Shown in pieces: positions 19,650-34,070 of a DNA stretch of 64,000 bases (positions within the stretch are counted from its first letter, which is position 1; each line of letters begins with the position of its first letter). Source of the DNA: Escherichia phage A221; sequence record ON862890.1; one strand, written 5' to 3'. Both the position numbers and the translations under genes were made by a program. Below the pieces are notes generated by a model that was given only the letters and a program-made list of their open reading frames with translations, was not told the origin of the DNA and searched no databases.

Positions 19650-21545
19650 ATGGCAACTCAAAGCTTCAGCGTTGCGCCGTCCGTACAGTGGACTGAGCGT
19701 GATGCCACGCTTCAGACGTCTCCATCCGTTGTTGTTCAGGGTGCGACTGTCGGCAAATTCCAATGGGGTGAAGCAGAACTCCCTGTGTTGGTCACTGGTG
19801 GCGAAACTGGTCTGGTGAAGAAATTCTTCAAGCCAAACGATGCAACTGCCACCGACTTCTTAGTGATTGCTGACTTCCTGTCTTACAGCTCTGTTGCATG
19901 GGTGACCCGTGTGGTCGGTCCGGCGGCACGCAACGCTGTAACCAAAGGTCAGACTGCAATCCTTATCCGCAACAAATTAGACTTCGAAACTGCGTCCCCA
20001 TCTGCGTCTATTACCTGGACAGGCCGCTATGCTGGCTCTCTGGGTAACGACATTGCTGTGAACATCTGTGATGCTGCGCTGTTCCCGACCTGGGAATTCC
20101 GTAACAACTTCGCATATGCTCCACAGGATGGCGAGTACCATATCGCCATCGTTGACAAAGTAGGTCGCATCACCGACTCTTCTGGCGCTGTTAGTCAGGT
20201 TGACCGTATCTCTGTATCCGGTACTGCCACCGCTGCTGGTTCCATCTCTGTTGCTGGTGAAGCCGTGGCGTACACTGACGCTGACACTCCGGCGACTCTG
20301 GCGACAAAGATCGGAACCGCGCTGACGTCTCTGTCTGAAGTGTATTCTTCTGTTGTCGTGAAGTCCAACACCGTCACCGTCACTCACAAAGCAATCGGTC
20401 CTCAGGCTGCGACTGCGATTGTTCCAGACGCGAATGGTATGACTGCTACCGCTGCCGTCACCACTGTTGGTGCTTCCGGTACGATCATCGAGAAGTATGA
20501 ACTGGTGCAGACCGCTCAGGGTTCTAAGAAATCTGATGGATCCAATGCGTACTTCAAAGACGTGATCAACGGCACCTCAAATTGGGTGTACACCTTCGCC
20601 ACTACCCTGGCTGCTGGTGTCATTGAACTCGAAGGTGGTGTAGACGATTACACTGGGAACCGTGTTGCGGCTATCCAGGCACTGAACAACGCCGAAGCGT
20701 ATGATGCCAAGCCAGTGTTCGGTTTCTGTGAAGAACTGATTGAGCAGCAGGCACTGATCGACCTGTCCACTGAGCGTAAAGACACAGTGTCCTTCGTGTC
20801 TCCTCTTCGCGATACGGTCGTCGGAAACCGTGGCCGTGAGATGGATGATGTTGTGGCCTGGCGTGAAAGCCTTGTTCGCGACTCCTCCTACTTCTTCATG
20901 GATGACAACTGGGCGTATGTGTACGACAAGTACAACGACAAAATGCGTTGGATTCCGGCTTGTGGCGGCACCGCAGGTGTTTGGGCGCGAAGCATTGAAA
21001 TCGCGGGTATCTACAAGTCTCCAGCGTTCCACAACCGTGGTAAATACAACAACTATAATCGAATGGCGTGGTCTGCGTCTTCTGATGAGCGTGCTGTGTT
21101 GTATCGCAACCAGATCAACAGCATCGTCACCTTCTCCAACGAAGGCATCGTGTTGTACGGCGACAAGACTGGCCTGACCCGCCCATCTGCGTTCGACCGC
21201 ATCAACGTTCGTGGTCTGTTCATTATGGCAGAGCAGAACATCGCAGCCATCGCCAAATACTACCTTGGTGAAAACAACGATGCATTCACTCGTGGGTTGT
21301 TCAGCAACGCTGTCCGCCCATATATCCGCCAGTTGGCCAACATGGGCGCGATCTATGACGGGATGGTGAAGTGTGACGAGGACAACAACACCGCTGATGT
21401 TATCGCTGCGAACCAGATGGTCGCGGGTATCTGGCTGAAACCAGAATACTCCATCAACTGGGTGTATCTGGACTTTGCTGCGGTACGTCCGGACATGGAG
21501 TTCAGCGAGATCGAAACTGGCGGTGGCATCGTAGCCGCTTCCTGA
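19650..21545 (+). CDS. gp18: tail sheath protein (T4 gp18-like)
   Basis: N-terminal VQGATVGKFQWGEAELPVLV matches the gp18 GKFQWG signature; ATG 19650 (track start 19617 is TTG); CTAAATA at 19601. Confidence 0.8.
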   Translation: MATQSFSVAPSVQWTERDATLQTSPSVVVQGATVGKFQWGEAELPVLVTGGETGLVKKFFKPNDATATDFLVIADFLSYSSVAWVTRVVGPAARNAVTKGQTAILIRNKLDFETASPSASITWTGRYAGSLGNDIAVNICDAALFPTWEFRNNFAYAPQDGEYHIAIVDKVGRITDSSGAVSQVDRISVSGTATAAGSISVAGEAVAYTDADTPATLATKIGTALTSLSEVYSSVVVKSNTVTVTHKAIGPQAATAIVPDANGMTATAAVTTVGASGTIIEKYELVQTAQGSKKSDGSNAYFKDVINGTSNWVYTFATTLAAGVIELEGGVDDYTGNRVAAIQALNNAEAYDAKPVFGFCEELIEQQALIDLSTERKDTVSFVSPLRDTVVGNRGREMDDVVAWRESLVRDSSYFFMDDNWAYVYDKYNDKMRWIPACGGTAGVWARSIEIAGIYKSPAFHNRGKYNNYNRMAWSASSDERAVLYRNQINSIVTFSNEGIVLYGDKTGLTRPSAFDRINVRGLFIMAEQNIAAIAKYYLGENNDAFTRGLFSNAVRPYIRQLANMGAIYDGMVKCDEDNNTADVIAANQMVAGIWLKPEYSINWVYLDFAAVRPDMEFSEIETGGGIVAAS

Positions 21546-21553
21546 TAAACAAA

Positions 21554-21581
21554 CCCCGCTTCGGCGGGGTTTTAAATTTTT
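21554..21581 (+). terminator. intrinsic terminator
   Basis: CCCCGC-ttcg-GCGGGG followed by ttttaaattttt after sheath gene. Confidence 0.65.
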
Positions 21582-21612
21582 CCCAGATTATTTTATTGAA
21601 TTACTTTACTTC

Positions 21613-21632
21613 TTCAATAACTCACGTATAAT
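21613..21632 (+). promoter_or_regulatory. TTCAATAA-N6-TATAAT promoter-like element
   Basis: cttcaataactcacgtataattc upstream of gene 21681; same box recurs at about 31835, 32095, 33094, 33116, 44591, 51063 and 56769. Confidence 0.4.
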
Positions 21633-21680
21633 TCTAAACATAAGCAGTACGACACCAACTTGAAACGAAGGAACTATATC

Positions 21681-22037
21681 ATGACCAAGACCGAAATTAA
21701 CGCTATCCTGAAAGAAATCGGCCTCTGTAACCTGAAACGCCGCATCAATCCTTACCAGCCTGCAAAGCCAGTACGCGACAGTCAGGGAAAGATGATAAAA
21801 GGGATCTACTGTGCAGATGTTGGTCCAATGACGGTGACCAGTCCACACATTGACAGATTTAACGCTATTGTTGGGGAGTTTTGTGGTAAGGTTCTGGGTA
21901 AACTAGCTAATGATTTATGCTCCCCAGATACCAAAGTTGTAGCTTTCGGGAGCCACCTCGTCACCTTCCACCTCACCAGCTTCCGTGCCCACGGTGATTA
22001 TTATGTGTATTATGCTCAGGTTGGCATTCGCAAATAG
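21681..22037 (+). CDS. hypothetical protein
   Basis: 118 aa; ATG at M8 of track ORF (codon 1 TTG); RBS gaaggaa; preceded by TTCAATAA-N6-TATAAT element; followed by bidirectional terminator. Confidence 0.4.
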   Translation: MTKTEINAILKEIGLCNLKRRINPYQPAKPVRDSQGKMIKGIYCADVGPMTVTSPHIDRFNAIVGEFCGKVLGKLANDLCSPDTKVVAFGSHLVTFHLTSFRAHGDYYVYYAQVGIRK

Positions 22038-22044
22038 TAGTTTA

Positions 22045-22070
22045 CCCCGCTGAGGCGGGGTTTTAGTTTT
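22045..22070. terminator. bidirectional terminator between convergent genes
   Basis: CCCCGC-tgag-GCGGGG followed by ttttagtttt; between gene 21681-22037 (+) and endonuclease gene (-). Confidence 0.6.
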
Positions 22071-23847
22071 CCAGTTCATACCGGATAAGACCACACCCCC
22101 AGATACGCCCCAACCCGGCTTCTATCGCCAGCATATCCTCTGTTTTACCTTCTACATCGTATCCAAGTTTAAGGAATTTCTCTTTCCTGAAATTGAATTT
22201 GTGTATACGTGAGCCATAGCCCGGAGTCACATATTTGTAATCAGGGGGAAGGATTTCCTTTTCAACAAATCCGTTATTCAGGTAAACATTTTTCAGACGA
22301 CTGACAACACAACGATCACCAAAAGAATATACTGTCTCACCCCGATGTCGAGCGATATAATATTTCAGCAAGCGTGAGAATGCGCCATGACAATTGTTAG
22401 AAGCAAATCTCACCAATTCAATACCATGCGTCCGTTTGGTAAACAACATCACCGCCTGGATATTCCCAGTTTTGTCTACAAGGTGTATATAATCTGTCGC
22501 CACCACACCACCTTGTATATGGAATCGGTCGAGAAAGTCCTTGGACGTCCTATAGGAGCCTTCTAAAATGATATGTTGGCGAGCGTATGACAATGGTTTC
22601 CCTATCCCCAATTTTGCTTTAAGGAGTGATTTAACCACTTCCCGTTTGTCACGCCACTCATCTTCCCAGATATGGATTAATTGAATACCCTGGGCTTCAC
22701 AGTACATGGTCTTTTCAAGATGGTAGTCTTTGTATCGATGTTTCTCTGTATGCCAGTACAAGCCGTTAAATTCTATTGCCAACTTATGTTCTGGGCAGTA
22801 TATGTCTATCTGGCGTGTGGTCACCCTTCCGTCGAACATTTTACCTCTGAGGACGGAGAAATTACCAGATTCGCATATAACACCCAATGAATCCAGGTAT
22901 GAACATATTTCTATTTCTGGCTGCGTTTGGCTTTGGCTGCTGGGGTACGTGAAAGAGTTCCTATATTCTTCAGAAGAGAAATAGTGAGGTACGCCGTATT
23001 TTTCTTTTGAAATGATCCTGGTATTGACCTGGCTTCTATCCCATATAGCCTTTACCTTCAACGGATAATCAACCCCATATTTTAAGACGCATGTTTTCTT
23101 TCTCTTTTCTATAATGGAATTGAGGAACATTGGATGATCCACACCATAGATCTTCCTCCAAGTCTCAATCACCCTTTCCCTCACTTCTGGCATTTTCATG
23201 ACGTGTGATACGCCATAGCGTTCCATGACGGAAGCAGCCACTCTGTCCTTTATAACATCAGACTTCATAGGGTGGTCGACCCCATATTTCTTAAGGACAG
23301 TTTCCCGCGACTTTTGTTTTACTTCTTCCAGTTGGAATGTGTTGGCTACGCCATATTTCTCTGATATGGCGTTTTCTAGGTTGACCCGTTCTGAGCCTCC
23401 CGCCTTCATTGATTTTCGTTGGCATTCTTCGGAACAAAACTTTTTGTATCTGGGTGGTTGGGCTTCCATTTCTAAGCCAACGTCAGCACCGCAAGTGACA
23501 CACTGCGACTTCGGAATATCGTACAGCCAAGCAGTTATCGCTTGTGGTTCTTCTAATAGGTCGTTGTGTGACACCACGTATCCAACAACATCAACCCCAG
23601 TATGGGCCGTGAGTAGGGGATGAGAGATAAGTTTGTAGTTCAACGAACCATCTTTCTTCCTGAGTTTACTATCAACCCAAGAGCGGCATTCGGTTTCGGT
23701 CGTCGGGATGTTATCCAACAAACCCGGATTGCGTTTCATCGTTCCCAGCATGAATGATTTACATTCGTCACTACAATACAACGCAGCCTTCCTGGTTGGG
23801 GTGAACGGTTTGTGGCAGCATGAACAATTTTTATCGGGGAATGGCAT
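22063..23847 (-). CDS. putative homing endonuclease, Hef-like (zinc ribbons + KYGV repeats + PD-(D/E)XK-like nuclease domain)
   Basis: Minus strand; ATG at 23847 with GAGGA RBS (track codon 1 is GTG); CxxC pairs; six imperfect repeats with core KYGVxHPM; EFNGLYWHTE...IHIWEDEW restriction-endonuclease-like motif; paralog of 29838-31826. Confidence 0.65.
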   Translation of the reverse strand: MPFPDKNCSCCHKPFTPTRKAALYCSDECKSFMLGTMKRNPGLLDNIPTTETECRSWVDSKLRKKDGSLNYKLISHPLLTAHTGVDVVGYVVSHNDLLEEPQAITAWLYDIPKSQCVTCGADVGLEMEAQPPRYKKFCSEECQRKSMKAGGSERVNLENAISEKYGVANTFQLEEVKQKSRETVLKKYGVDHPMKSDVIKDRVAASVMERYGVSHVMKMPEVRERVIETWRKIYGVDHPMFLNSIIEKRKKTCVLKYGVDYPLKVKAIWDRSQVNTRIISKEKYGVPHYFSSEEYRNSFTYPSSQSQTQPEIEICSYLDSLGVICESGNFSVLRGKMFDGRVTTRQIDIYCPEHKLAIEFNGLYWHTEKHRYKDYHLEKTMYCEAQGIQLIHIWEDEWRDKREVVKSLLKAKLGIGKPLSYARQHIILEGSYRTSKDFLDRFHIQGGVVATDYIHLVDKTGNIQAVMLFTKRTHGIELVRFASNNCHGAFSRLLKYYIARHRGETVYSFGDRCVVSRLKNVYLNNGFVEKEILPPDYKYVTPGYGSRIHKFNFRKEKFLKLGYDVEGKTEDMLAIEAGLGRIWGCGLIRYELEN

Positions 23848-23895
23848 AATAAATATCCTCACTTTGGAGTATTTTAACCCCCATTTATTTCAAAA

Positions 23896-23902
23896 CTAAA
23901 TA
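23896..23902 (+). promoter_or_regulatory. late-promoter-like motif CTAAATA
   Basis: 27 nt upstream of tail tube ATG 23929. Confidence 0.5.
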
Positions 23903-23928
23903 TTTACACTATTCAGAGGAGAACGACC

Positions 23929-24462
23929 ATGGCTACAGTTAATGAATTCAGAGCAGCTATGTCACGCGGGGGCGGCGTTCAGCGCCAACACCGTTGGCGT
24001 GTGACTGTTAACTTCCCTTCCTTCGTGGCTGGAAGCGATACCATCCGTGATGTTTCGCTGTTGGCGGTGACCACAAATACCCCAACAGGCCAGCTCGGGG
24101 AAATACTCGTCCCATGGGGTGGTCGTGAACTTCCATTCCCAGGTGACCGCCGCTTTGAAGCGCTGCCTGTGACGTTCATCAACGTCGTGGACAACGCTCC
24201 GTACAACGCATTCGAAGTCTGGCAGCAGTACATCAACGGCAGCAACAACAACCGTGCGTCTGCTAACCCAGATGATTATTTCCGTGATGTAATCATGGAA
24301 CTGTTGGATGCGAATGACAACGTCACCAAGACCTGGACCCTTCAGGGCACCTGGCCTCAGAACCTCGGTCAGCTGGAACTGGACATGTCTGCAATGGACT
24401 CTTATACTCAGTTCACTGTTGACCTGCGTTACTTCCAGGCCATCTCAGACAAGTCTCTCTAA
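23929..24462 (+). CDS. gp19: tail tube protein (T4 gp19-like)
   Basis: 177 aa; LPVTFINVVDNAPYNAFEVWQ and C-terminal LQGTWPQNLGQLELDMSAMDSYTQFTVDLRYF resemble T4 gp19; CTAAATA at 23896. Confidence 0.75.
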   Translation: MATVNEFRAAMSRGGGVQRQHRWRVTVNFPSFVAGSDTIRDVSLLAVTTNTPTGQLGEILVPWGGRELPFPGDRRFEALPVTFINVVDNAPYNAFEVWQQYINGSNNNRASANPDDYFRDVIMELLDANDNVTKTWTLQGTWPQNLGQLELDMSAMDSYTQFTVDLRYFQAISDKSL

Positions 24463-24528
24463 TGTCCTCAGTGCTGGGGGATCTTTATTCCCCCTCACTA
24501 ATTACAAGAAAATGTTGAGGACTTAATC

Positions 24529-26223
24529 ATGGCATTCGGTAATGGTGCATTCGGAAATGGGTTCTTCGGCCTGTTCGGTAGAGGCGGCAAAGTAGAAGCG
24601 CCGATTGATACTGACAAGATGGTCACGAACCAAGAAGAGAAGTTGCTTTCAAAAGCGACTGTTGTTGCGCTGGACGATTCTCAGGATGGTTCCATCATCC
24701 TCCAGGGCGGCGCGAACACATTCAATTTCGTTGGTGTTGAGAATGAGTTGCTCAACGTCAAACAGCTGGTCGAAGAGTACCAATCTATGGCTCAGCAGCC
24801 TGAGATTCGTAAGGCTGTGGATATCATTGTCAACGACGTCGTCACTTGTGAAGAGGAAGAGACTCCTGTAACCATCAACCTGGAAAAGGTAGATGGCATC
24901 ACAGACGAAGTCAAAGAGAAGATCACTGACGCATTCAAAGAGATCATGCATCTCCTTGACTTTGACAACACAGCGTATCAGAAGATCCGCAAATGGTATA
25001 TTGAAGGCCGTCAGGCATTCCACGTTGTAGTGGACCCGAAGAACAAGAAAGCGGGTATCGCCAAACTCATCATGATGGACTCACGCTGTATCCGTCCTGT
25101 ATACATCGTTCAAAAGGCGATGCGCGACGGTATCGAAGTCATCAATGACGTAAAACTTCAATACTACTACAACCCGAACTACAACCGCAACCAATTCACT
25201 GGCCAGTCCGGTACGTCTCAGAACTTCCAACCGTCACAGCAAGAGCTGGTGTTTGATGATGAGAGCATAGTGTATCTGGACAGTGGTGAAGAGCCTCTGG
25301 CGAATGGGGTTGTACCAAGCCTGCTGAACCCAGCTATCCGTCCCCTGAACAACCTTGTTACAACTGAAGATGCAACGGTGATCTATGCGATCACACGTGC
25401 TCCTGAGAAGCGAGCGTTCTATCTCGACGTGGGTACGCTGGGTAAGAAGTCGGCCGAAGAATACATGCAAGCCATGATGGGCAAATTCAAGAACCGCCTG
25501 GCGTATGATCGCACCACTGGTAAGGTGGCTGGTAACACTCATTTGATGGGTATCGCTGAGGACTACTGGCTACCACGTCGCGAAGGGCAGAACGCAACCG
25601 AGATCTCCAACGTAGGCGGTGGTGATCAACTGGGTCAAATGGATCATGTGGTATACTTCCGAGAGAAGCTCTACGAGGCTCTGATGATCCCTAAGAGCCG
25701 CCTGCAAGAGGAAGGTTCCATCAACATCGGTGGTTCCAATCTTGCTGAAATCACACAGGAAGAACTGCGCTTCAACAAGTTCTGTGCGAGCCTGCGCCGT
25801 CGTTATTCTTCTGGTATATTCCTGGAACTTCTGCGCCGTCAACTGATATTGAAAGGCATTACAGATCAGGCTGACTGGAATGAGAAGATCAAGCCGTTCG
25901 TCAAGTTCGAATTCACTTCTGACAGCTTCATCCGTGAACAACAAGAGAACGAAATCTTGTCACAGCGTATGGCGGCTCTCGGTCAGATCGAACCATATAT
26001 CGGCACTCTCTTCTCTATCGATTTTGCTCAACGCAATTTGCTGCGTATGTCCGATGAAGACATCAAAGACCAGCAAGAGAAAATCGCGAAAGAGAAGAAA
26101 GAAGGCAAATACCCTGAAGTGCAGGCAGATGAGTCCGGCGGCTTCGGCAGCGGGGAAGTCAGTCCACTGAAATTCAGACCTAACGTCATCCCAGCGACTA
26201 ATCCTCCTGGTGGTGAAGAATAA
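24529..26223 (+). CDS. gp20: portal protein (T4 gp20-like)
   Basis: 564 aa; QKIRKWYIEGRQAFHVVVDPKNKKAGIAKL and IYAITRAPEKRAFYLDVG resemble T4 gp20; position between tube and protease. Confidence 0.8.
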   Translation: MAFGNGAFGNGFFGLFGRGGKVEAPIDTDKMVTNQEEKLLSKATVVALDDSQDGSIILQGGANTFNFVGVENELLNVKQLVEEYQSMAQQPEIRKAVDIIVNDVVTCEEEETPVTINLEKVDGITDEVKEKITDAFKEIMHLLDFDNTAYQKIRKWYIEGRQAFHVVVDPKNKKAGIAKLIMMDSRCIRPVYIVQKAMRDGIEVINDVKLQYYYNPNYNRNQFTGQSGTSQNFQPSQQELVFDDESIVYLDSGEEPLANGVVPSLLNPAIRPLNNLVTTEDATVIYAITRAPEKRAFYLDVGTLGKKSAEEYMQAMMGKFKNRLAYDRTTGKVAGNTHLMGIAEDYWLPRREGQNATEISNVGGGDQLGQMDHVVYFREKLYEALMIPKSRLQEEGSINIGGSNLAEITQEELRFNKFCASLRRRYSSGIFLELLRRQLILKGITDQADWNEKIKPFVKFEFTSDSFIREQQENEILSQRMAALGQIEPYIGTLFSIDFAQRNLLRMSDEDIKDQQEKIAKEKKEGKYPEVQADESGGFGSGEVSPLKFRPNVIPATNPPGGEE

Positions 26224-26260
26224 TTCGACTAAGTATAGAAAACATTTAGAGGATATGAAC

Positions 26261-26431
26261 ATGGCTGCTATCGATCTGGTAAAAGCAATCATCGCTGGTG
26301 ATACTGATGCCGCTGCTGCTGAATGCGAAATGGAGCTGTCCGCTCGCGCCCAAGAACTGGTCCAGCAGGGTACTGAATATGTCTTGAACTCCCTGAGCCA
26401 AGACATGGGTCCTTTCGGCGACGACCAGTAA
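26261..26431 (+). CDS. small acidic head-associated protein (gp67-like by position)
   Basis: Track ORF 26210 starts at GTG inside portal gene; ATG 26261 with agagga RBS gives 56 aa; position between portal and protease. Confidence 0.3.
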   Translation: MAAIDLVKAIIAGDTDAAAAECEMELSARAQELVQQGTEYVLNSLSQDMGPFGDDQ

Positions 26432-26443
26432 GAGGAATGTATC

Positions 26444-26749
26444 ATGGAAATCGAAGAAGTTGCAACGTTCGCTGATTTCCTGGCTTCCCGCATGGATGAG
26501 CAGAAAGTCATTGACAAGGTGAACGCAAAAGGCAAACGCCGTCGCCGTCTGCAGTGTGCTCCTGGTTTCAAACTGTCTGCGGATGGTTCCCGTTGTGAGG
26601 TGATGGTCGCCAGTGAGCGCCGTACTCGCAAGCTGGGCAACCGCAAGGCGATCCGAGCCAAGAAACGCATGGGTATGGGATACCAACGCAAAATCGAGCG
26701 TCGTAAGAAAAAAGCAATGAAGTTCCGTCGTATGATGGGACTGAGTTAA
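26444..26749 (+). CDS. highly basic small protein (prohead core/internal protein-like by position)
   Basis: 101 aa; Arg/Lys-rich C-terminus; strong RBS; located in head morphogenesis block. Confidence 0.4.
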   Translation: MEIEEVATFADFLASRMDEQKVIDKVNAKGKRRRRLQCAPGFKLSADGSRCEVMVASERRTRKLGNRKAIRAKKRMGMGYQRKIERRKKKAMKFRRMMGLS

Positions 26750-26756
26750 GGAGCGA

Positions 26757-27425
26757 ATGATGAAACTGTTGCGTGAGATCACTGCGATAGGGAAAGACCT
26801 TCAGATTGGTGAAGCGGCCACGGCTACTGGCGGCAGAGCCATGTACATCGAAGGTCCATTCGTGATGTGTAACCAGGTGAACCGTAATGGTCGCAACTAC
26901 GATCTCCAAAAGGTGGGTATCCCTGCTGTCGAAGCATACGACAAAGAGTATATCCAGGATCGTCGTGCAATCGGTGAACTCAAGCATCCGGATTATCCTT
27001 TCCCCGATATCGAACACGCTGCACTCAAAACCGAATCTTTGCGCTGGGAAGGCACCAACGCTATCGGTCGAGCGCGGATCCTGAATACACCGAAAGGTCA
27101 GATCATTCGTGCTCTGGCTGAAGCAGACTTCAACCTGGCCGTGTCTACACGTGGCCTTGGTGAGACCAAGTCAGTGAACGGCTATGATGACGTTCAACCC
27201 GGCTTTATGCTCACTGCTGTTGATGCAGTCGACCGTCCTTCTGGACAAGTTTGTTATGTAAAGGCTGTGAGCGAATCTGTGGAATGGCAGCTTGATGAAT
27301 CTTCAGGAATTTGGGTTCCTAAGGACATTAAGGGGCATGTGGTCGATTCATTGGTGAAAACCAATATTCAGTTAGAAGACGACTTCCTGCGCCGCCTCGA
27401 TATCGCATTGAAACATCTGGGCTGA
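26757..27425 (+). CDS. gp21: prohead core protease (T4 gp21-like)
   Basis: 222 aa; MYIEGPFVMCNQVNRNGRNYD and GELKHPDYP segments resemble gp21-family proteases; synteny portal-protease-scaffold-capsid. Confidence 0.7.
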   Translation: MMKLLREITAIGKDLQIGEAATATGGRAMYIEGPFVMCNQVNRNGRNYDLQKVGIPAVEAYDKEYIQDRRAIGELKHPDYPFPDIEHAALKTESLRWEGTNAIGRARILNTPKGQIIRALAEADFNLAVSTRGLGETKSVNGYDDVQPGFMLTAVDAVDRPSGQVCYVKAVSESVEWQLDESSGIWVPKDIKGHVVDSLVKTNIQLEDDFLRRLDIALKHLG

Positions 27426-27436
27426 ATTCAGCCTCA

Positions 27437-27443
27437 CTAAATA
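27437..27443 (+). promoter_or_regulatory. late-promoter-like motif CTAAATAc
   Basis: 28 nt upstream of scaffold ATG 27471; followed by CTGAA/TTCAG inverted repeat. Confidence 0.5.
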
Positions 27444-27470
27444 CTGAAAATCGTTCAGAAGGAAACAATC

Positions 27471-28319
27471 ATGAAACCTGAATTGCAAAAACTGTTTGAG
27501 GGCGTTAACGGCCTCAGCACCGACTTCCTGGATAAAGTGTCTGGTCTGCTGGAATCTAAAGTAGAAGCCGCTCGCCTGACCGCTATTCAAGAAACCGAAA
27601 ATGCTGCCAATATTGAGCGCCTGCGTCTGGTTGAAGCTCATCAGGCTGAGATTGCTCAGCTGAAAGAGTCTCACTTGATGGAAATCGCGACCAAAGTCGA
27701 TGGCTTCCTGAATGCTGTTGTAGAAGAGTGGGCTAACAAGAACGCTCCTGCTATCGACGCTCAGATCAAACGTGAAGCGGCTGAAAATCTGCTGACTGGC
27801 CTGACTGGTGTTCTGAAAGAAGCTGGTATTAACTTTGCCACCGACGAAAACGGCCAGATCGCTGCGCTGACTGCCCGCCTGGCCGAAGCAGAACAACGTG
27901 CTGCGATTGCCGAAAGCGAAAACCGTCAAATCAAAGAAGCCGCGAATGCGACTCTGCGTGACTCTGTGATCGCCCGTGTCTGTGAAGGTATGGTCGACAC
28001 CAAGAAAGCAACGGTTGTCAATCTGCTGGAAGCTGTGCAGTTCACCACCGAAAGCGAATTCGCTTCCCGCGTACACACCTTCCGCAACCTGGTAGAAGGT
28101 AAGTCCGTGAAGAAAGAAGGTGATGACGATGACGATGACTTCCAGGACAAAGTCGGCGGTAAAGACGGCGATGACGACAACAAAGATGTTAAAGCCGAAG
28201 GCAAAAAGCCTAAGAAAGAAGACGATGAAGACGATGAAGATGAAACAGACAAAGAGCTGAAAGAATCTATCAAGCGTCAGTTGGCCGACTATAATCGTCG
28301 CTTCGGCATCAACGGCTAA
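27471..28319 (+). CDS. gp22: prohead scaffold protein (T4 gp22-like)
   Basis: 282 aa, alanine/glutamate-rich coiled-coil composition with acidic Asp-rich C-terminal tract; immediately upstream of capsid gene; CTAAATA at 27437. Confidence 0.6.
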   Translation: MKPELQKLFEGVNGLSTDFLDKVSGLLESKVEAARLTAIQETENAANIERLRLVEAHQAEIAQLKESHLMEIATKVDGFLNAVVEEWANKNAPAIDAQIKREAAENLLTGLTGVLKEAGINFATDENGQIAALTARLAEAEQRAAIAESENRQIKEAANATLRDSVIARVCEGMVDTKKATVVNLLEAVQFTTESEFASRVHTFRNLVEGKSVKKEGDDDDDDFQDKVGGKDGDDDNKDVKAEGKKPKKEDDEDDEDETDKELKESIKRQLADYNRRFGING

Positions 28320-28410
28320 TTTTAGCAGCCACAGCCCTCGAAAGGGGGCTTGATTTTGAACTACTAAGTAATTTCAACTTAACTGAATATCAATGTAAGG
28401 AATGACCATC

Positions 28411-29733
28411 ATGGCTAAGAAACTTGTTACCGAACAAATGCGCGAGCAGTGGCTGCCAGTTCTTCAGAAAGAATCTGAAAGTATCCAGCCGCTTTCTGCC
28501 GAAAACGTTGCCGTCCGTCTGCTGCAAAACCAGGCTGAGTGGAACGCCAAAAACCTGGGCGAATCCGACGCTCCTGGCTCCGTGAACGCCTCTGTGGGCA
28601 AATGGCAGCCAGTCCTGATCGACATGGCCAAACGTCTGGCTCCGGTCAACATCGCGATGGACTTCTTCGGTGTTCAGCCGCTGTCTGGTCCTGACGGTCA
28701 GATCTTCGCACTGCGTGCTCGCCAGGGCGTTGCAGACGGCTCCAACACTGCCCAGTCCCGCGCTGAGCTGTTCATGAACGAAGCCAACTCCGGTTACTCC
28801 GGTGACGATACTGCACAGGCTGGCGACCCATCTGGCTTCTCCCAGACTGAGATCGAAGGTTCCGGCGCTGCTACCACCACCATCGGTAAAGGCATGTCAA
28901 CTTCCGACGCTGAACTGCTGGGCACCACCACCAACCCATGGGCACGTGTTGGTATCACCGTTCAGAAAGCAACCGTGACTGCGAAGTCTCGCGGCCTGTA
29001 CGCTGACTACAGCCACGAACTGCGCCAGGACATGATGGCGATCCACGGCGAAGACGTTGACAGCATCCTGTCCGACGTGATGGTAACTGAAATTCAGGCA
29101 GAGATGAACCGTGAGTTTATCCGCACCATGAACTTCAGCGCAGTACGCTTCAAAAAATTCGGCACCAACGGTATCGTAGACATCTCCACTGACATCTCCG
29201 GTCGTTGGGCGCTGGAAAAATGGAAGTACATGACTTTCATGCTGGAAGTTGAAGCGAACGGCATCGGTGTTGACACCCGTCGTGGTAAAGGCAACCGTGT
29301 TCTGTGCTCCCCGAACGTAGCATCCGCTCTGGCGATGTCCGGCATGCTGGATTATGCTCCGGCGCTGCAGGAAAACACCAAGCTGGCGATTGATCCGACT
29401 GGTCAGACCTTCGCTGGTGTGCTGTCGAACGGTATGCGTGTATACATTGACCCGTATGCAGTAGCAGAATACATCACCCTGGCATACAAAGGTGCAACCG
29501 CGCTGGATGCTGGTATCTTCTTCGCACCATACGTGCCGCTGGAAATGTACCGCACCCAGGGTGAAACCACCTTCGCACCACGCATGGCGTTTAAAACCCG
29601 CTACGGCATCTGTGCTAACCCATTCGTTCAGATCCCAGCGAACCAGGATCCACAGGTCTATGTGACTGCGGATGGTATCGCCAAGGACACCAACGTGTAT
29701 TTCCGTAAAGGGCTGATCAAAGGCCTGTTCTAA
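28411..29733 (+). CDS. gp23: major capsid protein (T4 gp23-like)
   Basis: MDFFGVQPLSGPDGQIFALRARQG matches the gp23 FDICGVQPMNSPTGQVFALRA region; ATG 28411 preferred (aagga RBS) over in-frame ATG 28402. Confidence 0.9.
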   Translation: MAKKLVTEQMREQWLPVLQKESESIQPLSAENVAVRLLQNQAEWNAKNLGESDAPGSVNASVGKWQPVLIDMAKRLAPVNIAMDFFGVQPLSGPDGQIFALRARQGVADGSNTAQSRAELFMNEANSGYSGDDTAQAGDPSGFSQTEIEGSGAATTTIGKGMSTSDAELLGTTTNPWARVGITVQKATVTAKSRGLYADYSHELRQDMMAIHGEDVDSILSDVMVTEIQAEMNREFIRTMNFSAVRFKKFGTNGIVDISTDISGRWALEKWKYMTFMLEVEANGIGVDTRRGKGNRVLCSPNVASALAMSGMLDYAPALQENTKLAIDPTGQTFAGVLSNGMRVYIDPYAVAEYITLAYKGATALDAGIFFAPYVPLEMYRTQGETTFAPRMAFKTRYGICANPFVQIPANQDPQVYVTADGIAKDTNVYFRKGLIKGLF

Positions 29734-29761
29734 TCGAACAGTTGTCCTTAACCCTGACAAA

Positions 29762-29789
29762 CCCCGCCAACGTGCGGGGTTTTCTTTTG
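29762..29789 (+). terminator. intrinsic terminator after capsid gene
   Basis: CCCCGC-caacgt-GCGGGG followed by ttttcttttg. Confidence 0.65.
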
Positions 29790-29802
29790 AAACAAACCAG
29801 CA

Positions 29803-29808
29803 TATAAT
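29803..29808 (+). promoter_or_regulatory. TATAAT -10-like box upstream of Hef-like endonuclease gene
   Basis: catataattctaaa downstream of capsid terminator, 30 nt before ATG 29838; similar tataattctaaa follows the TTCAATAA box at 21627. Confidence 0.35.
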
Positions 29809-29837
29809 TCTAAAATAATAATAGGTAGGATTAGATC

Positions 29838-31826
29838 ATGATTCATATATGCCGGACATGCAAAACCTCATTCGTCAATGCCCAGTCAAAGGCCGTCTAC
29901 TGTAGTGTTGATTGCAGAACCTTTTACCAAACAGTTGGTATCAAATTCTCCCCAGAGTTAATGTCGGACGCCAAATTTATTCAAACTGAAGATGACTACA
30001 AAGACTTCATCCGTGAATATTTCTATATGAAGAATGGCAACCTGAATTACCAACTACTATCTTCACCCCTGTTGTCATCTTACCTTGGCGTAGACCCCCT
30101 CAAATATGCCAACCAGCACAACTCTGAAGAATCCGTGAACACCCGTGTATTGGTCTGGTTACACGACGTCAAACCAACACCTTGTATCACCTGCGGTGCT
30201 AGAACTTCTGTCGAGATTAAGAAGTCTATCCCATCCTACCGGAAATATTGTTCGGAGGAATGCTATGCCCAATCAATGAAGTTGGGTGGTGAAGCCCGTA
30301 AAGTCTTGGACAAGACAATACTGGACAAATATGGCGTGGAAAACGTGTTCCAGGATGAATCCATAAAAGGGAAGGCACGGTTGACCATGCTGCAGCGTTT
30401 CGGCGTAGAACACATTATGCAGTCTGAAGAGGGGCGGCAGCTATTCAGAGATTCCGTTATGGAAAAATATGGGGTTGAGCACCCGATGCAGTTGGAAGAG
30501 ATCAAACGGCGCGCATGGGATACCCTCGGTGCTCGGTCTTGGTATGCTACTTCAGAAGGTAAAGCTGCGCGGGAGAAGGCATTTGGTGGATACCAAGGCG
30601 GTCATCCGATGCGTGACAGGGGTGTTATAGAGAAGATAATCTCAAACAATCTCAAGCGGTATGGTGTTGAATGGCCTGCTCAAGACCCTGTTATCAAAGC
30701 TAAAGTTGTAGACACCATGTTGGAAAAATATGGTGTGTCCCACCCATTACAAATACCAGAAGTGAAAGCCAGAGTCAAACAAAGTCACCAAACAAAGTAC
30801 GGTAGATTCTATTTCAATAGACATGAGGTTATGTTATTGGCTTCGGAACGTTCTAAAGAGACATGTGTTAGAAAATATGGTGTACCATATGCGTTGCAGA
30901 ACAAATCCATGTGGGAACACATTACGTCATCCCTTAATTCGAAATCAAAACCAGAAATAGAAATATCTGATTGGCTCACTTCAATGGGGGTTGCCCACAA
31001 ATGCTCCGACTTCACCCTCCTAAACAATATGAATTGCCAGGACGGTGGAACTCGACGCCAGATAGACATCTATTGCCCAGAACACAAACTGGCAATAGAA
31101 TTTAATGGCCTGTATTGGCACAGTGAGATACACAAATATCGCCGTTATCATCTCGAAAAGACAGAGGCATGTGAAGCACAAGGCGTTCAGCTGATACACA
31201 TCTGGGAAGATGAGTGGCATAACAACCCAGAGATCGTGAAAGGGTTGCTGGCTGCCAAACTCGGGATCAAGAAGCCATCCGGGTACGCCCGTCAGTGTTA
31301 TGTAGAGGAAGGTAAGAAGTCGGATATTCTAGAACTCCTGGCCTCTCAACACATACAGGGCACCATTCATTCGGCCACGCATTACCTTCTCCTCAGAGAT
31401 AAGAGAGACAACCGGGTTCGGGCTGTCATGACCTTTATCAAACGTGTGGTGAAGGGGGAACAGTGTATGGAACTTACGAGGTTTGCCTCCGACGGCATTC
31501 ACGGGGCGTTCTCTAAACTGCTGGCGTACTACAAGGAACATCTCTGGGATGGCGTGAAGACTTTCTCCTTTGGCGATAGGTGTGTTGTTAGTCGGTTGTC
31601 CAACATTTATCTTTCTCACGGGTTCGTCGAGGAAGAAATACAAGACCCGGATTACAAATATCACAAACCAGGGACTCTCATGCGGGAGCACAAGTTTGGA
31701 TTCAGAAAGGCAGACTTTGCTCGCATGGGCTATGGCGTAGAAGGTAAGACAGAAGATCAGTTAGCAACCGAAGCCGGGCTGGTCAGGATTTGGAATTGTG
31801 GACTGATCAAATATGTCTTGAACTAA
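29838..31826 (+). CDS. putative homing endonuclease, Hef-like (paralog of 22063-23847)
   Basis: 662 aa; N-terminal CxxC zinc ribbons; seven KYGVxHPMQ-type repeats; EFNGLYWHSE...IHIWEDEW nuclease motif; C-terminal about 200 aa clearly homologous to the minus-strand copy; own TATAAT-like box at about 29803. Confidence 0.65.
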   Translation: MIHICRTCKTSFVNAQSKAVYCSVDCRTFYQTVGIKFSPELMSDAKFIQTEDDYKDFIREYFYMKNGNLNYQLLSSPLLSSYLGVDPLKYANQHNSEESVNTRVLVWLHDVKPTPCITCGARTSVEIKKSIPSYRKYCSEECYAQSMKLGGEARKVLDKTILDKYGVENVFQDESIKGKARLTMLQRFGVEHIMQSEEGRQLFRDSVMEKYGVEHPMQLEEIKRRAWDTLGARSWYATSEGKAAREKAFGGYQGGHPMRDRGVIEKIISNNLKRYGVEWPAQDPVIKAKVVDTMLEKYGVSHPLQIPEVKARVKQSHQTKYGRFYFNRHEVMLLASERSKETCVRKYGVPYALQNKSMWEHITSSLNSKSKPEIEISDWLTSMGVAHKCSDFTLLNNMNCQDGGTRRQIDIYCPEHKLAIEFNGLYWHSEIHKYRRYHLEKTEACEAQGVQLIHIWEDEWHNNPEIVKGLLAAKLGIKKPSGYARQCYVEEGKKSDILELLASQHIQGTIHSATHYLLLRDKRDNRVRAVMTFIKRVVKGEQCMELTRFASDGIHGAFSKLLAYYKEHLWDGVKTFSFGDRCVVSRLSNIYLSHGFVEEEIQDPDYKYHKPGTLMREHKFGFRKADFARMGYGVEGKTEDQLATEAGLVRIWNCGLIKYVLN

Positions 31827-31830
31827 AAGA

Positions 31831-31870
31831 ACATTTCAATAACGGGGCGAGAGGTATTATTGCCCTCTCT
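31831..31870 (+). repeat. TTCAATAA-hairpin cassette, copy 1
   Basis: tttcaataacggggcgagaggtattattgccc, about 90% identical to copy at 32091-32130. Confidence 0.7.
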
Positions 31871-31889
31871 ATTAATCGAGGAAATCACA

Positions 31890-32090
31890 ATGAGCCTGAA
31901 AGAAGATTCTGTAAACACCACAGTCGCCAACTCCACTTTCCGTGAGTGGCACGACGTATTATGCAAAGTCGCGAAAAGCCAGGGCGGTTCAGCCGCCGAC
32001 GCCGACGCCTGGCGTGATGATTACGAAGCAGGCAAGACCCCTCGCCAGTCTTGGGAAGATGAATGGGGTTGGGAAGAACAAGAAGGATAA
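31890..32090 (+). CDS. hypothetical acidic small protein
   Basis: ATG at M11 of track ORF (codon 1 TTG); gagga RBS; preceded by TTCAATAA-hairpin cassette. Confidence 0.35.
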   Translation: MSLKEDSVNTTVANSTFREWHDVLCKVAKSQGGSAADADAWRDDYEAGKTPRQSWEDEWGWEEQEG

Positions 32091-32130
32091 CAGTTTCAAT
32101 AACGGGGCGAGAGGTATTATTGCCCCGTCT
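32091..32130 (+). repeat. TTCAATAA-hairpin cassette, copy 2
   Basis: tttcaataacggggcgagaggtattattgccccgt with perfect ACGGGGC/GCCCCGT stem. Confidence 0.7.
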
Positions 32131-32150
32131 ACTTATCCGAGGGTTGTACC

Positions 32151-32375
32151 ATGTACTTGAAAAAGATCGTGAAGAAGCCGAAAGCCGGTGTTGCCGAGGT
32201 GTGCCTCATCGAGGTTTACGTTGATTCTTGTAACAATGAGCAGTGTTACTTCATGGTCGAGACGATGGTGTATGTTCCAGCCTCTCACCTGAACCGTGAT
32301 TTCGTCACAACCGAAAATGTCGTCCGCTGGGAGATTGCAACGCAGTCCGATATCGACGAACACAACATTCTTTGA
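32151..32375 (+). CDS. hypothetical protein
   Basis: 74 aa; ATG start; preceded by second copy of the TTCAATAA-hairpin cassette. Confidence 0.35.
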   Translation: MYLKKIVKKPKAGVAEVCLIEVYVDSCNNEQCYFMVETMVYVPASHLNRDFVTTENVVRWEIATQSDIDEHNIL

Positions 32376-32392
32376 AAGGAAGGATCTATATC

Positions 32393-32836
32393 ATGTGTGA
32401 TAAGAATTTCATTTTCATTAGTCCCGCCAAGAAACAGTTCTTCCGTAGCTCCGTTGGGGACAAGGTGGAAGGTTTCCGTAAATTCAAAGATTATCGCCTG
32501 GCATGCGGTGATGTTGATTTTCAGAGCTTCGACAATGATCGCCAGGATTTGAACGATGAGGGTTGGACAGAAGTTCCATCCCCACAGTTTATCGATGTCA
32601 AGCTGTACTACATGAAGGACAGTGGGAAGTATTATTCAGAGGGTGTGATCAAAATCAACCGTGGGGAGGCCGAGGCCGAACCTGCTAAGTCCTGGATGGA
32701 GACTGTGGATAAAATCCGCTATCTGCTCGACTCAGGCAATTTGCCTGGTTTGGTTAAAGGTGCCCGGTACGAGGTCTTCGTGACCGGAGAAGGGCATCCA
32801 GGTGGTTATCCACAACTGTTCCGCATTAACAACTGA
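32393..32836 (+). CDS. hypothetical protein
   Basis: ATG at M8 of track ORF (codon 1 TTG); RBS gaaaggaagg; 147 aa. Confidence 0.4.
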   Translation: MCDKNFIFISPAKKQFFRSSVGDKVEGFRKFKDYRLACGDVDFQSFDNDRQDLNDEGWTEVPSPQFIDVKLYYMKDSGKYYSEGVIKINRGEAEAEPAKSWMETVDKIRYLLDSGNLPGLVKGARYEVFVTGEGHPGGYPQLFRINN

Positions 32837-32844
32837 GGTCAAAC

Positions 32845-33081
32845 ATGATTATCAAAAAGATCGGCGCAAGTCCTCTCACTGGTACTATATTCCAGGGCAG
32901 GTTGAACACCAAAACCAGCATGTGGGTTGGTGAGAAGACCGACGTGACAGATGACTGTGTGGCAGCTGTAGCCGAACACTTGCGTCACATCAAGAAAGAC
33001 TATTGCTTCCCAACGACGGATGGTAAGTTTCTGGTGCTGAGCGCCGAGGTTCACGACACCCTTCCTGATCGCTTCAAATAA
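32845..33081 (+). CDS. hypothetical protein
   Basis: 78 aa; ATG with gagg RBS; tightly packed after previous gene. Confidence 0.4.
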   Translation: MIIKKIGASPLTGTIFQGRLNTKTSMWVGEKTDVTDDCVAAVAEHLRHIKKDYCFPTTDGKFLVLSAEVHDTLPDRFK

Positions 33082-33093
33082 ATTTTAAATTTA

Positions 33094-33180
33094 TTCAATA
33101 AACGGGGTTTAATTCTTCAATAAACCCCGTATACTTCATTCCATAAGCAGCACAACACTGACTTGAAATGAAGGAACTAT
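33094..33180 (+). repeat. dispersed repeat related to 21612-21677, with ACGGGGTTTA/TAAACCCCGT hairpin
   Basis: cttcaataa...cataagcag...acttgaaatgaaggaactat shares about 80% identity over about 66 bp with the leader of gene 21681. Confidence 0.55.
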
Positions 33181-33282
33181 CACCACTCTCGTTACAAAGT
33201 AACATTGCAGCAATTTGTTCTAAACCTTTGAACAGGGTATGTTAACCACATACCCTATCCCCTACAAATAGAGGACTTTATC

Positions 33283-33603
33283 ATGGCTAACAGCATCCCG
33301 ATTTTAGAAGCGGTCGTAAAAGAGAACCCTCGTGCGCGCAAACCACGTCGCCGCCTGACCACCAAGCTGGATCTTCTGAAACAGAAGTTCGGCGACCACA
33401 GTGTGTTCACTCGCATTCGAAATGCAATAAAGGAAGGGCGAACTGAGCTGGAGCTATATCGACCGAACGGTTCGACACGCGCGTATCAGACCACTGACGG
33501 CTTACTGGAACTGATCCGCCTGAGCGGGATGACGATCGAACCTCGTTCGTCAGGTACTCCTCTGTGCTCCCTGTACGTAATCGGCAATCTTGGGGCGCTG
33601 TGA
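33283..33603 (+). CDS. hypothetical basic protein
   Basis: 106 aa; ATG with agagga RBS; Arg/Lys-rich N-terminus. Confidence 0.4.
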   Translation: MANSIPILEAVVKENPRARKPRRRLTTKLDLLKQKFGDHSVFTRIRNAIKEGRTELELYRPNGSTRAYQTTDGLLELIRLSGMTIEPRSSGTPLCSLYVIGNLGAL

Positions 33604-33607
33604 TTCT

Positions 33608-34030
33608 ATGAAGAAGTATATCGTTCTCATTACGGGTTCCCGCTCAATCACCGAGCGGGATAAGGTATTCGCCAAGCTGGACGAACTCTTGGATCCTCGT
33701 GAGGTCTATACACTGATTGAGGGTGAAGCCTCTGGTGTAGACAAGATTTGCCGTGATTGGGCTGAAATCAATTATGTTCATATCACTCCTATGCCAATAC
33801 CTCCGAGCTATTATGAAAAGTATGGGAAAGGGATGGGCAACAAACGCAATCAGGACATGTTAGACAAGGCATTGGATCTCGTCAGACAGACCAAGCTGGA
33901 AGTGTATCCGATTGCGATGTGGGATGGTTCGTCCACTGGCACCCTGGACATGATCAACCGTTGCAAGAAAGCTGGCCTCCCTGTGGATATCACTCTAATG
34001 GGTAAGCCGAAGACCAAGCGCCTTTTGTAA
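33608..34030 (+). CDS. SLOG-superfamily protein (DUF2493-like), putative nucleotide-binding
   Basis: IVLITGSRSI...EGEASGVDKICRDWA...GKGMGNKRNQDML matches the remembered DUF2493 pattern ITGSR / GxASGxD / G..RN..M. Confidence 0.5.
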   Translation: MKKYIVLITGSRSITERDKVFAKLDELLDPREVYTLIEGEASGVDKICRDWAEINYVHITPMPIPPSYYEKYGKGMGNKRNQDMLDKALDLVRQTKLEVYPIAMWDGSSTGTLDMINRCKKAGLPVDITLMGKPKTKRLL

Positions 34031-34070
34031 CATACCATAAATAATTGAATACACACAGCGGAGATACATC

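Follow-up and report, generated by a model that had tools for sequence, protein, structure and literature searches.

Repeated promoter- and terminator-like cassettes in an Ackermannviridae phage head small accessory genes and probably serve as patches for their exchange

The 64,000-nucleotide (nt) stretch of Escherichia phage A221 analysed here (sequence record ON862890.1; hereafter the window) contains two families of dispersed repeats, a long one (D2, corresponding to class A) and a short one (D1, corresponding to class B), as well as a third family made of terminator hairpins (TermB). We propose that the D1 and D2 copies are composite promoter/terminator cassettes that drive accessory genes and that, quite probably, also serve as homology patches for the phage recombination machinery. 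Class A cassettes would combine a sigma-70 promoter of the T4 early type with a conserved, unstructured 5' untranslated region (5'UTR) of about 45 nt and a common ribosome-binding region. Class B cassettes would be built on the pattern TTCAATAA-N12-TAnnnT, without a sigma-70 -35 box and with the -10 hexamer at the apex of a GC-rich hairpin which, in read-through RNA from the upstream gene, could act as a terminator or attenuator. Each cassette would drive one small accessory gene. Since the copies share 30-80 nt and T4-type recombination genes (uvsX, uvsY and gp46/47) are annotated in this phage, they could provide the homology by which the genes behind them are deleted, replaced or converted, as the promoter-early stem-loops (PeSLs) do in T4-like phages.

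Sequence searches placed the window in an Agtrevirus-like phage of the Ackermannviridae (ViI-like phages, Aglimvirinae), 98% identical to Escherichia phages PC3 and PH4. The region matched about 290 Ackermannviridae genomes, from Agtrevirus-like, Limestonevirus, Kuttervirus and Klebsiella phages, and the nearest match of the D1 region was phage RPN242 (99.8%). D2 and D1 were the top two repeat families in a window-wide repeat search, and self-BLAST recovered both. Nine relatives were compared piecewise over positions 19000-36500 of the window and the junctions were then read directly from the sequence; the phages used included PC3, ZQ1, MK-13, LIMEstone1, AV101, LHE287, YX22, fGh-Ecl02, CBA120 (a Kuttervirus, of another subfamily than the window) and Mutine. 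Motifs were counted genome-wide in two complete genomes, PC3 (assembled whole from pieces) and CBA120, with a first-order Markov model as null. The region starts with the terminase and tail sheath genes (the latter ending at 21545), a gene of 118 amino acids (aa; 21681-22037) and a minus-strand Hef-like gene (22063-23751). There follow the tube, portal, core, protease, scaffold and major capsid genes (to 29733), a second Hef-like gene (29838-31826), small genes of 66, 74, 147 and 78 aa, the second copy of D2, and more small genes.

The first-pass annotation of this DNA had pointed to two nearly identical hairpin cassettes before the genes at 31890 and 32151. Self-BLAST of the window confirmed them: the D1 copies (31834-31877 and 32094-32137) are 91% identical over 44 nt, with the first 35 nt identical (E = 1.6e-13), and sit immediately 5' of the two ATGs. 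In both, the layout is TTCAATAA-CGGGGCGAGAGG-TATTAT; a CGGGGC/GCCCCG-type hairpin carries the hexamer at its apex, and a Shine-Dalgarno sequence and ATG follow about 20 nt further on. The hairpin of the second copy has 9 base pairs (bp; 32102-32110 with 32120-32128; -17.5 kcal/mol). The D1 cassettes and their genes are as follows:

31834-31889, plus strand: D1 copy 1 (class B), with TTCAATAA at 31835-31842, N12, TATTAT at 31855-31860, then a Shine-Dalgarno sequence
31844-31850 paired with 31860-31866, plus strand: GC hairpin of D1 copy 1, TATTAT at its apex
31890-32090, plus strand: 66-aa accessory gene, absent (deleted) in ZQ1, AV101 and LHE287
32094-32150, plus strand: D1 copy 2 (class B), with the octamer at 32095-32102, TATTAT at 32115-32120, then a Shine-Dalgarno sequence
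32151-32375, plus strand: 74-aa accessory gene, no paralogue of the 66-aa gene

Whereas the window, PC3 and YX22 keep two D1 copies, the three phages lacking the 66-aa gene have a single cassette whose left flank is that of D1-1 and whose right flank is that of D1-2. The alignment pieces of these three genomes (to 31874/31881 on the left, from 32089 on the right) overlap by about 50 nt inside this single cassette. The loss of the 66-aa gene is best read as a deletion between the two D1 cassettes, that is, an indel bounded by repeats. The chimeric cassette of ZQ1 has the CGGGGC allele and those of AV101 and LHE287 have CGGGGT, which implies different crossover points or different parental alleles. 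The 66-aa protein is found in members of Kuttervirus, Limestonevirus and Agtrevirus (100% amino-acid identity in MK-13, 74% in Mutine, 39% in LIMEstone1 ORF136). The gene is therefore ancestral, and insertion as the origin of the indel can be rejected in favour of deletion. Tandem duplication as the source of the D1 pair was rejected too, the 66-aa and 74-aa proteins being unrelated.

The D1 copies contain other breakpoints. In addition to the one at 31874-31881, D1-1 has one at 31853, inside its loop, where the matches to MK-13, P46FS4, Ag3, PhiSH19 and KE30 begin; those of D1-2 lie at 32080-32089, the match to RC-2014 beginning at 32080. Moreover, D1-1 of PC3 has the 3' arm of D1-2 (gccccgtcta|ttaatcg), while D1-2 of the window has the CGGGGC allele of D1-1. 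In two genomes that are 98% identical, these reciprocal differences have the appearance of gene conversion tracts. As a separate observation on the small-gene block, nucleotide identity between the window and MK-13 is 95.4% over 31853-32200 and 92.5% over the whole block (31853-33179), against about 89% in the flanking core genes, which suggests that the block was recently exchanged between the two lineages.

The leader of the gene at 21681 had also been noticed to recur downstream of the small-gene block with its start codon lost, and this holds: the D2 copies at 21605-21677 and 33108-33180 align without gaps over 73 nt (81% identity, E = 5e-15). Copy 1 continues straight into the ATG at 21681, and copy 2 ends in '...ggaactat|caccac', without an ATG. 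The D2 copies comprise the following elements:

21604-21632, plus strand: putative class A promoter of D2 copy 1, CTTTAC-N17-TATAAT, with TTCTTCAATAA in the spacer
21593-21620, no strand assigned: inverted octamer pair TTATTGAA-N12-TTCAATAA, bracketing the -35 of the D2-1 class A promoter
21633-21680, plus strand: leader (5'UTR) of D2 copy 1, conserved and unstructured, in which the Shine-Dalgarno region AGGAACTATATC precedes the ATG
33094-33135, plus strand: putative promoter of D2 copy 2, with the octamer at 33094-33101, GTTTAA at 33107-33112, N17 and TATACT at 33130-33135
33136-33180, plus strand: leader of D2 copy 2, in which a deletion junction replaces the ATG in the window

Both copies fit the pattern of a T4-type early promoter upstream of a gene, and in a consensus scan D2-1 was the top sigma-70-type match of the region (10/12; TTTACT-16-TATAAT or, equivalently, CTTTAC-17-TATAAT). 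D2-2, whose spacer holds TTCAATAA at 33116-33123, has GTTTAA as its -35 in the window and GTTTAC in relatives; the authors of the LIMEstone1 record annotated its orthologue as a putative early promoter, GTTTAC-17-TATACT. A 10-bp hairpin (33102-33111 with 33121-33130; z = -4.6) overlaps the -35 and the spacer of D2-2. The earlier description of the repeats as promoter- and terminator-type modules agrees with their predicted anatomy. A structured RNA in the D2 leader was ruled out, as shuffled sequences fold just as well (-0.7 kcal/mol; 184 of 200 shuffles equal or better).

Class A extends well beyond this pair. Copies from ten phages gave the consensus [G/C]TTTAC-TTCTTCAATAA-N6/7-TATA(A/C)T, followed by a leader of about 45 nt (TCATTCCATAAGCAGYACRACAC...TGAAAYGAAGGAACTATATC) and the ATG. 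The census found five copies in PC3 and five in CBA120, against 0.3-1.0 in simulations, and the leader is common to copies that head unrelated genes. In three of the PC3 and two of the CBA120 class A promoters, the inverted TTATTGAA stands 12-13 nt upstream of the spacer octamer, an arrangement with zero occurrences in the simulations; the inverted pair may be a site for a dimeric protein. Measured from the -35 to the ATG, the D2-2 promoter-leader unit is 82-83 nt long, and between LIMEstone1 and the Kuttervirus members CBA120 and Mutine it is 99-100% identical. The translation-initiation context (A)GGA..CTATATCATG is common to many unrelated genes of the window (21669-21683, 32381-32395, 51402-51416, 55607-55621, 59772-59786 and others), and TATATCATG occurs six times on the plus strand of the window and not at all on the minus strand. 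A general ribosome-binding consensus accounts for part of the D2 similarity.

The D2 variants do not sort by position. D2-1 of the window is 93% identical to the CBA120 copy upstream of orf112, at another locus, and 84% identical to the Mutine copy at the same locus; D2-1 of Mutine is in turn 89% identical to the third copy of PC3 (D2-3, at 68.7 kb). This grouping points to ectopic exchange of D2 variants between loci.

The start codon missing from D2-2 in the window is present in ZQ1, LIMEstone1, MK-13, Mutine and CBA120. An intact 93-aa gene (ORF133 of LIMEstone1) lies behind the D2-2 promoter-leader in LIMEstone1 and ZQ1; MK-13 is also listed with it, and in the comparison of the slot MK-13 is given an unrelated 88-aa gene. 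D2 copy 2 lacks its ATG because two microhomology deletions removed this 93-aa gene. The first, of about 50 nt including the start codon, leads from '...ggaACTAT|atcATG...' to '...ggcACTAT|cac...'; the second, of about 190 nt, lies between '...gcaatTTGT|t' and '...gcatTTGT|t'. What they left is:

33181-33219, plus strand: remnant of the 93-aa gene, an internal piece spared by deletions at the microhomologies ACTAT and (A)TTTGT (BLAST piece 33176-33219)

This deleted state is common to the window, PC3, LHE287 and YX22, and represents gene decay through microhomology deletion. In other phages the same promoter-leader heads the 93-aa gene (LIMEstone1, ZQ1), a 109- or 154-aa gene (fGh-Ecl02, AV101, Mutine; the two have a C-terminal domain in common) or the unrelated 88-aa gene (MK-13). 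The breakpoints are constant (33179/33180 and 33212/33213), the 33180 junction being found in six relatives with three unrelated genes, and the D2-2 slot is a gene-replacement hot spot. These junctions were taken from direct reading, a global MAFFT alignment of the slot having misplaced the short window sequence.

The first-pass annotation had further suggested that the repeats mark exactly the regions inserted relative to the T4 head-gene order, through cassette shuffling by recombination. Part of this stands: the D1 pair bounds the 66-aa indel, the 33180 junction recurs in six relatives, terminator repeats flank the module of the 118-aa gene (LIMEstone1, without the module, has one terminator), and shuffling agrees with the chimeric D1 cassettes and the conversion tracts. 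The rest does not: the two large endonuclease insertions are not bounded by D1 or D2, the ATG of D2-2 was lost otherwise, and the D2 pair flanks no insertion. An inserted segment between D2-1 and D2-2 was ruled out, the tube-portal-protease-scaffold-capsid block between them being present in all relatives. The D2 copies are not insertion borders, because core head genes lie between them and both belong to a genome-wide promoter family.

Several points weigh against the cassettes as regulatory homology patches. Our literature search returned no transcript 5' or 3' ends and no reporter data for any Ackermannviridae phage, and the census spans two genomes and a first-order Markov null. The D1 hairpins are no stabler than shuffled sequence (z about -1.05) and have no clear U tract. 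The D1 copies also have no sigma-70 -35 hexamer at 16-18 nt and were missed by the consensus scan despite a good TATTAT -10, so that initiation would be weak or need an additional factor. The two biggest insertions are homing endonuclease genes, and the microhomology deletions behind D2-2 do not involve the repeats. As to indel boundaries in relatives, the D1 copies and the 3' end of D2-2 coincide with them, but D2-1 was never a breakpoint among the nine relatives, the breakpoints lying in the adjoining terminator instead. Finally, indel junctions are expected between genes anyway, as only such recombinants are viable, and the cassettes fill a large share of the local intergenic DNA, so that co-location alone is weak evidence. 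What is decisive is therefore the existence of chimeric cassettes and conversion tracts, together with the way in which D2 variants group ectopically.

This evidence also bears on an alternative in which each copy is a separate instance of a consensus for promoter and ribosome binding, maintained by function alone and playing no part in recombination, the overlap with junctions following from viability. The 99-100% identity of D2-2 across subfamilies does indicate strong functional constraint, and the ribosome-binding consensus AGGA..CTATATCATG is indeed found in many unrelated genes; the intergenic space taken up by the cassettes and the absence of breakpoints in D2-1 also agree with it. However, consensus instances of this kind would not explain why single-cassette genomes have a chimeric cassette without junction-specific sequence, why two 98% identical genomes have reciprocal D1-1/D1-2 conversion tracts, why D2 variants group by sequence type and not by locus, or why some 45 nt of 5'UTR are alike in copies before unrelated genes. 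We thus regard it as unlikely, and retain the cassettes as probable substrates of homologous recombination.

The octamer TTCAATAA, which had been taken to mark insertions, turned out to be a general regulatory word of the phage: it occurs ten times in the window, where shuffling gives an expectation of 2.5 and no shuffle out of 100 had ten, and 32 times in PC3 (5.4 simulated). The full pattern TTCAATAA-N12-TAnnnT occurs six times in the window (0.89 expected). PC3 has ten exact copies, and 15 when up to one mismatch is allowed (simulated mean 1.0 for the latter); CBA120 has ten exact copies, against 0-3 at other spacings. For the exact copies, about 1-4 per genome would be expected. When the exact octamer is followed by TAnnnT at N11-N14 in PC3, the spacing is N12 in 10 of 12 cases, with one case each of N11 and N14. 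There are about 12 class B sites in each of the two genomes. Of the 15 PC3 sites, 11-12 are intergenic and in the same orientation as the next gene, and the distance from the octamer start to the next ATG is usually 54-63 nt (94 and 106 nt at two sites), the gene starts being taken from annotation or from a heuristic. Besides the D1 pair, further members in the window include:

51355-51413, plus strand: class B cassette containing a weak third D1 copy (repeat 51354-51397), TTCTATAA-N12-TATGAT, ATG at 51414
44591-44616, plus strand: class B site, TTCAATAA-N12-TATATT, with the next ATG 94 nt away at 44685 and a CBA120 orthologue at 85281
55562-55618, plus strand: class B cassette, ATCAATAA-N12-TATCAT inside a hairpin, ATG at 55619

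In nine orthologous pairs from PC3 and CBA120, identity reaches 99% in the octamer and 98% in the -10, with 80% in the spacer, 59% upstream and 73% downstream. At most class B sites a GC-rich inverted repeat encloses the hexamer, with stems of up to 16 bp followed by T runs, and stem substitutions between PC3 and CBA120 keep the pairing (C-G to T-A, G.T to G-C and C-G to T.G, for example). The same is true of the cassette at 51355, whose 11-bp hairpin around the -10 has z = -2.9 and whose stem changes relative to CBA120 also keep pairing. Such a pattern is what a bipartite promoter set into a terminator-like hairpin would be expected to show. At one PC3 class B cassette (131193; record 131087-131200, minus strand), an ATG with a Shine-Dalgarno-like sequence lies about 60 nt on, where the annotation has no gene start; this ATG may represent a missed small open reading frame (ORF) or a misplaced start.

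The conserved pairing could also mean that the D1-type elements are not promoters but act in RNA only, as terminators, attenuators or processing/stability hairpins within an operon, TTCAATAA being a protein-binding or processing signal. The long stems followed by T runs of several members (16-bp stems at PC3 134029 and 131193, for instance), the lack of a sigma-70 -35 and the stem pairing kept across genera all fit such a role. By contrast, it would leave unaccounted for the invariant TAnnnT exactly 12 nt from the octamer (10 of the 12 exact-octamer PC3 sites with TAnnnT at N11-N14) and the 98% conservation of a hexamer that sits in a loop. Furthermore, there is no bracketing hairpin at PC3 151126, PC3 105119 and CBA120 26056, and only a weak, AT-rich one at PC3 47275, while the geometry is that of activator-dependent promoters of the MotA-box-N12-TAnnnT type. 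We therefore give a purely RNA-level role little credence and favour promoters combined with hairpins.

One may go further and suppose, tentatively, that TTCAATAA-N12-TAnnnT defines an early/middle promoter class common to all Ackermannviridae, used by the host RNA polymerase with a phage factor acting like MotA/AsiA, with the -10 lying in the terminator hairpin and the palindromic site switching class A; we see this as possible rather than likely. If true, one 40-nt element would end the upstream transcript, start the next one and offer a portable homology patch for gene-cassette exchange. The TTATTGAA-N12/13-TTCAATAA palindrome at class A promoters would be the site where the same factor switches early promoters, and this factor would be a functional analogue of sigma appropriation by T4 MotA/AsiA in a family from which both proteins are reported to be missing.

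The two largest insertions bring in another possible source of the mosaicism:

22063-23751, minus strand: Hef-like free-standing homing endonuclease gene (DUF7487, 2e-25), homologous to F-LimVIII of LIMEstone1
29838-31826, plus strand: Hef-like homing endonuclease gene of the F-LimVII type (DUF7487, 3e-31)

Both also have weaker, sub-threshold Pfam matches to REase/DUF559. In the two slots, relatives hold other endonuclease genes (GIY-YIG, SegD-like, Hef variants) or none; in particular, the 29838 slot contains other endonuclease variants in relatives, and small genes instead in MK-13 and Mutine. The junctions that lie outside the repeats belong to the endonuclease genes (22176, 23637, 22920, 23249, 31028 and 31566), and the left junction of the second slot (29789) abuts TermB-3 and not a D1 or D2 copy. 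The mosaicism could be due to these two genes, through double-strand-break repair and co-conversion of the flanks, with the repeats as bystanders. That both large insertions are Hef-like endonuclease genes, that different endonuclease genes occupy the same two slots in relatives, that the variable small-gene blocks adjoin these slots and that LIMEstone1 retains a duplicated tail-tube leader beside F-LimVIII are all in line with such a scenario. However, the 66-aa indel and the D2-2 slot replacement are also seen among phages with the same endonuclease variant (ZQ1 versus YX22), and homing leaves unexplained the genome-wide recurrence of the cassettes and the exchange of variants between loci about 45 kb apart. 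It is also compatible with recombination at cassettes, which endonuclease breaks could start. As a full account with bystander repeats, we hold homing to be improbable, somewhat more so than the other two alternatives, and keep the cassettes as the more probable seat of exchange.

Two observations concern the endonuclease slots themselves. In LHE287 (piece L003, 3990-4390, corresponding to 22176-23637 of the window), the minus-strand endonuclease gene is reduced to its two ends by an internal deletion of about 1.46 kb whose junctions lie in no repeat. The tail-tube gene has two alternative leaders among relatives (window 23880-23931; LIMEstone1 piece L006, 4840-5105). In LIMEstone1 the leader accompanying the Hef-like gene, ATG included, stands upstream of the second leader, next to F-LimVIII, and has been joined to the other type of terminator and to what is left of the start of a GIY-YIG gene. 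This double leader can be read as a scar of successive endonuclease-gene insertions.

The TermB family (AAACCCCGC...GCGGGGTTT; repeats at 21551-21579, 22044-22070 and 29759-29782) follows the sheath, 118-aa and capsid genes and, together with D2-1, frames the 118-aa gene:

21551-21582, plus strand: TermB-1, predicted intrinsic terminator after the tail-sheath gene, with a 9-bp stem and a T run (-16.1 kcal/mol, z = -3.8)
21681-22037, plus strand: 118-aa accessory gene, between its own putative promoter D2-1 and the terminator TermB-2
22044-22070, plus strand: TermB-2, right copy of the terminator repeat, 85% identical to TermB-1
29759-29790, plus strand: TermB-3, after the major capsid gene, its end being the common left junction (29787-29789) of the variable endonuclease slot

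Breakpoints of relatives fall at 21541-21579, within or next to TermB-1. The 118-aa gene is absent from MK-13, fGh-Ecl02, YX22, AV101, LIMEstone1 and CBA120. At its site, MK-13 is empty, fGh-Ecl02, YX22 and AV101 have a GIY-YIG gene, CBA120 has a SegD-like gene, and the single terminator of LIMEstone1 aligns to both TermB-1 and TermB-2; in ZQ1 and LHE287 an additional gene of 100 aa is found together with a terminator of another type. Pfam gave no match, and hence no functional clue, for the small genes of 118, 66, 74 and 147 aa. An Rfam scan of 21400-33400 (E up to 1) gave sub-threshold chance matches on terminators only and no known RNA family.

Elsewhere in the window, the gene at 56849-57127 is called 'transcription factor' in the PC3 annotation, and its sequence (MNRTEFVAHIAS...) resembles a 92-aa DNA-binding protein of the HU/IHF type; TTCAATAA is found upstream, at 56769, without TAnnnT at N12. 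At 39533-39598, in a long intergenic region between divergent genes and upstream of the gene for the sliding clamp, a 19-nt unit, TTAATAAAG(A/G)TTATTATCT, is repeated in tandem three to four times; each unit holds the inverted repeat AATAA...TTATT, and the array has an iteron- or operator-like appearance.

These data can be set against what has been reported on transcription in the family. Kutter et al. (2011; PMC3184105) found no MotA or AsiA homologue in ViI-like phages, whose early promoters were not identifiable by informatics. The AG3 and LIMEstone papers give only a few tentative sigma-70 or T4-like sites, and the words 'promoter' and 'transcription' are both absent from a 2024 review of the Ackermannviridae. 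Our literature search found no paper linking TTCAATAA or PeSLs with the Ackermannviridae and none mapping transcription starts there. The cassettes are the first concrete candidates that we found for the missing early/middle promoters of this family. Ackermannviridae phages are widely used in biocontrol and are being engineered, and two countable motif classes with predicted start sites make the question of their transcription testable; the cassettes also point to natural 'landing pads' for gene insertion with built-in expression.

Compared with known systems, the class A pattern [G/C]TTTAC-N17-TATA(A/C)T resembles the T4 early promoters (-35 GTTTAC, -10 TATAAT-like) but differs from them by the conserved TTCTTCAATAA in the spacer and, in several copies, by the inverted TTATTGAA 12-13 nt upstream. 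In the T4 middle promoters, which depend on MotA/AsiA, a MotA box, (a/t)(a/t)(a/t)TGCTT(t/c)A, is located about 12 bp from TAnnnT. Class B likewise has an 8-9-bp box near -29/-30 in place of the -35, a fixed 12-bp spacer and a sigma-70-type TAnnnT, although its box, TTCAATAA, is unrelated to TGCTT(t/c)A. Free-standing homing endonuclease genes (Hef, Seg, Mob), to which F-LimVII and F-LimVIII of LIMEstone1 belong (PMC3296691), account for 22063-23751 and 29838-31826; in contrast to the cassette-borne genes, these are not bounded by D1 or D2 and would spread by homing rather than by cassette recombination. The 118-aa gene recalls the morons (Hendrix et al., 2000, discussed in PMC2839356), being located between the sheath and tube genes with its own putative promoter (D2-1) and terminator (TermB-2) and absent in six relatives, except that repeated regulatory sequences able to mediate gain or loss flank it, a feature outside the moron model.

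The closest likeness is with the PeSLs, intergenic elements comprising promoter boxes, a GGGG...CCCC stem-loop, a Shine-Dalgarno sequence and the ATG, found before orphan genes (PMC2839356, PMC4122927). They were defined as shuffling cassettes in RB49/phi1 (Arbiol et al., 2010; PMC2839356) and found again in PST/T4 and nt-1/KVP40 (Comeau et al., 2014; PMC4122927); experiments demonstrated promoter activity, terminator activity and mini-circles, and indels between two PeSLs leave one chimeric copy (PMC2839356, PMC4122927). In the window, comparable spans are 31827-31889 (D1-1), 32091-32150 (D1-2) and 21583-21680 (D2-1), with putative promoter boxes, a Shine-Dalgarno sequence and a stem-loop over the -10 (CGGGGC...GCCCCG in D1), over the -35 and spacer (D2-2) or upstream (the terminator hairpin about 30 nt before D2-1). 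As with PeSLs, dispersed copies precede small orphan genes, here those of 66, 74 and 118 aa without Pfam match, indels between close relatives leave a single chimeric cassette, and T4-type recombination genes are present. The differences are the host family, Ackermannviridae instead of the T4-like Straboviridae (Tevenvirinae), the about 45 nt of 5'UTR that the D2 copies also have in common, and the boxes: the D2 copies carry both -35 and -10, whereas the D1 copies have only the TATTAT -10, with TTCAATAA at N12 in place of the sigma-70 -35. The shuffling principle was already known, and our results would extend the PeSL model past the T4-like phages: in their anatomy as in the comparison of relatives, the cassettes appear to form a PeSL-like system in a new phage family.

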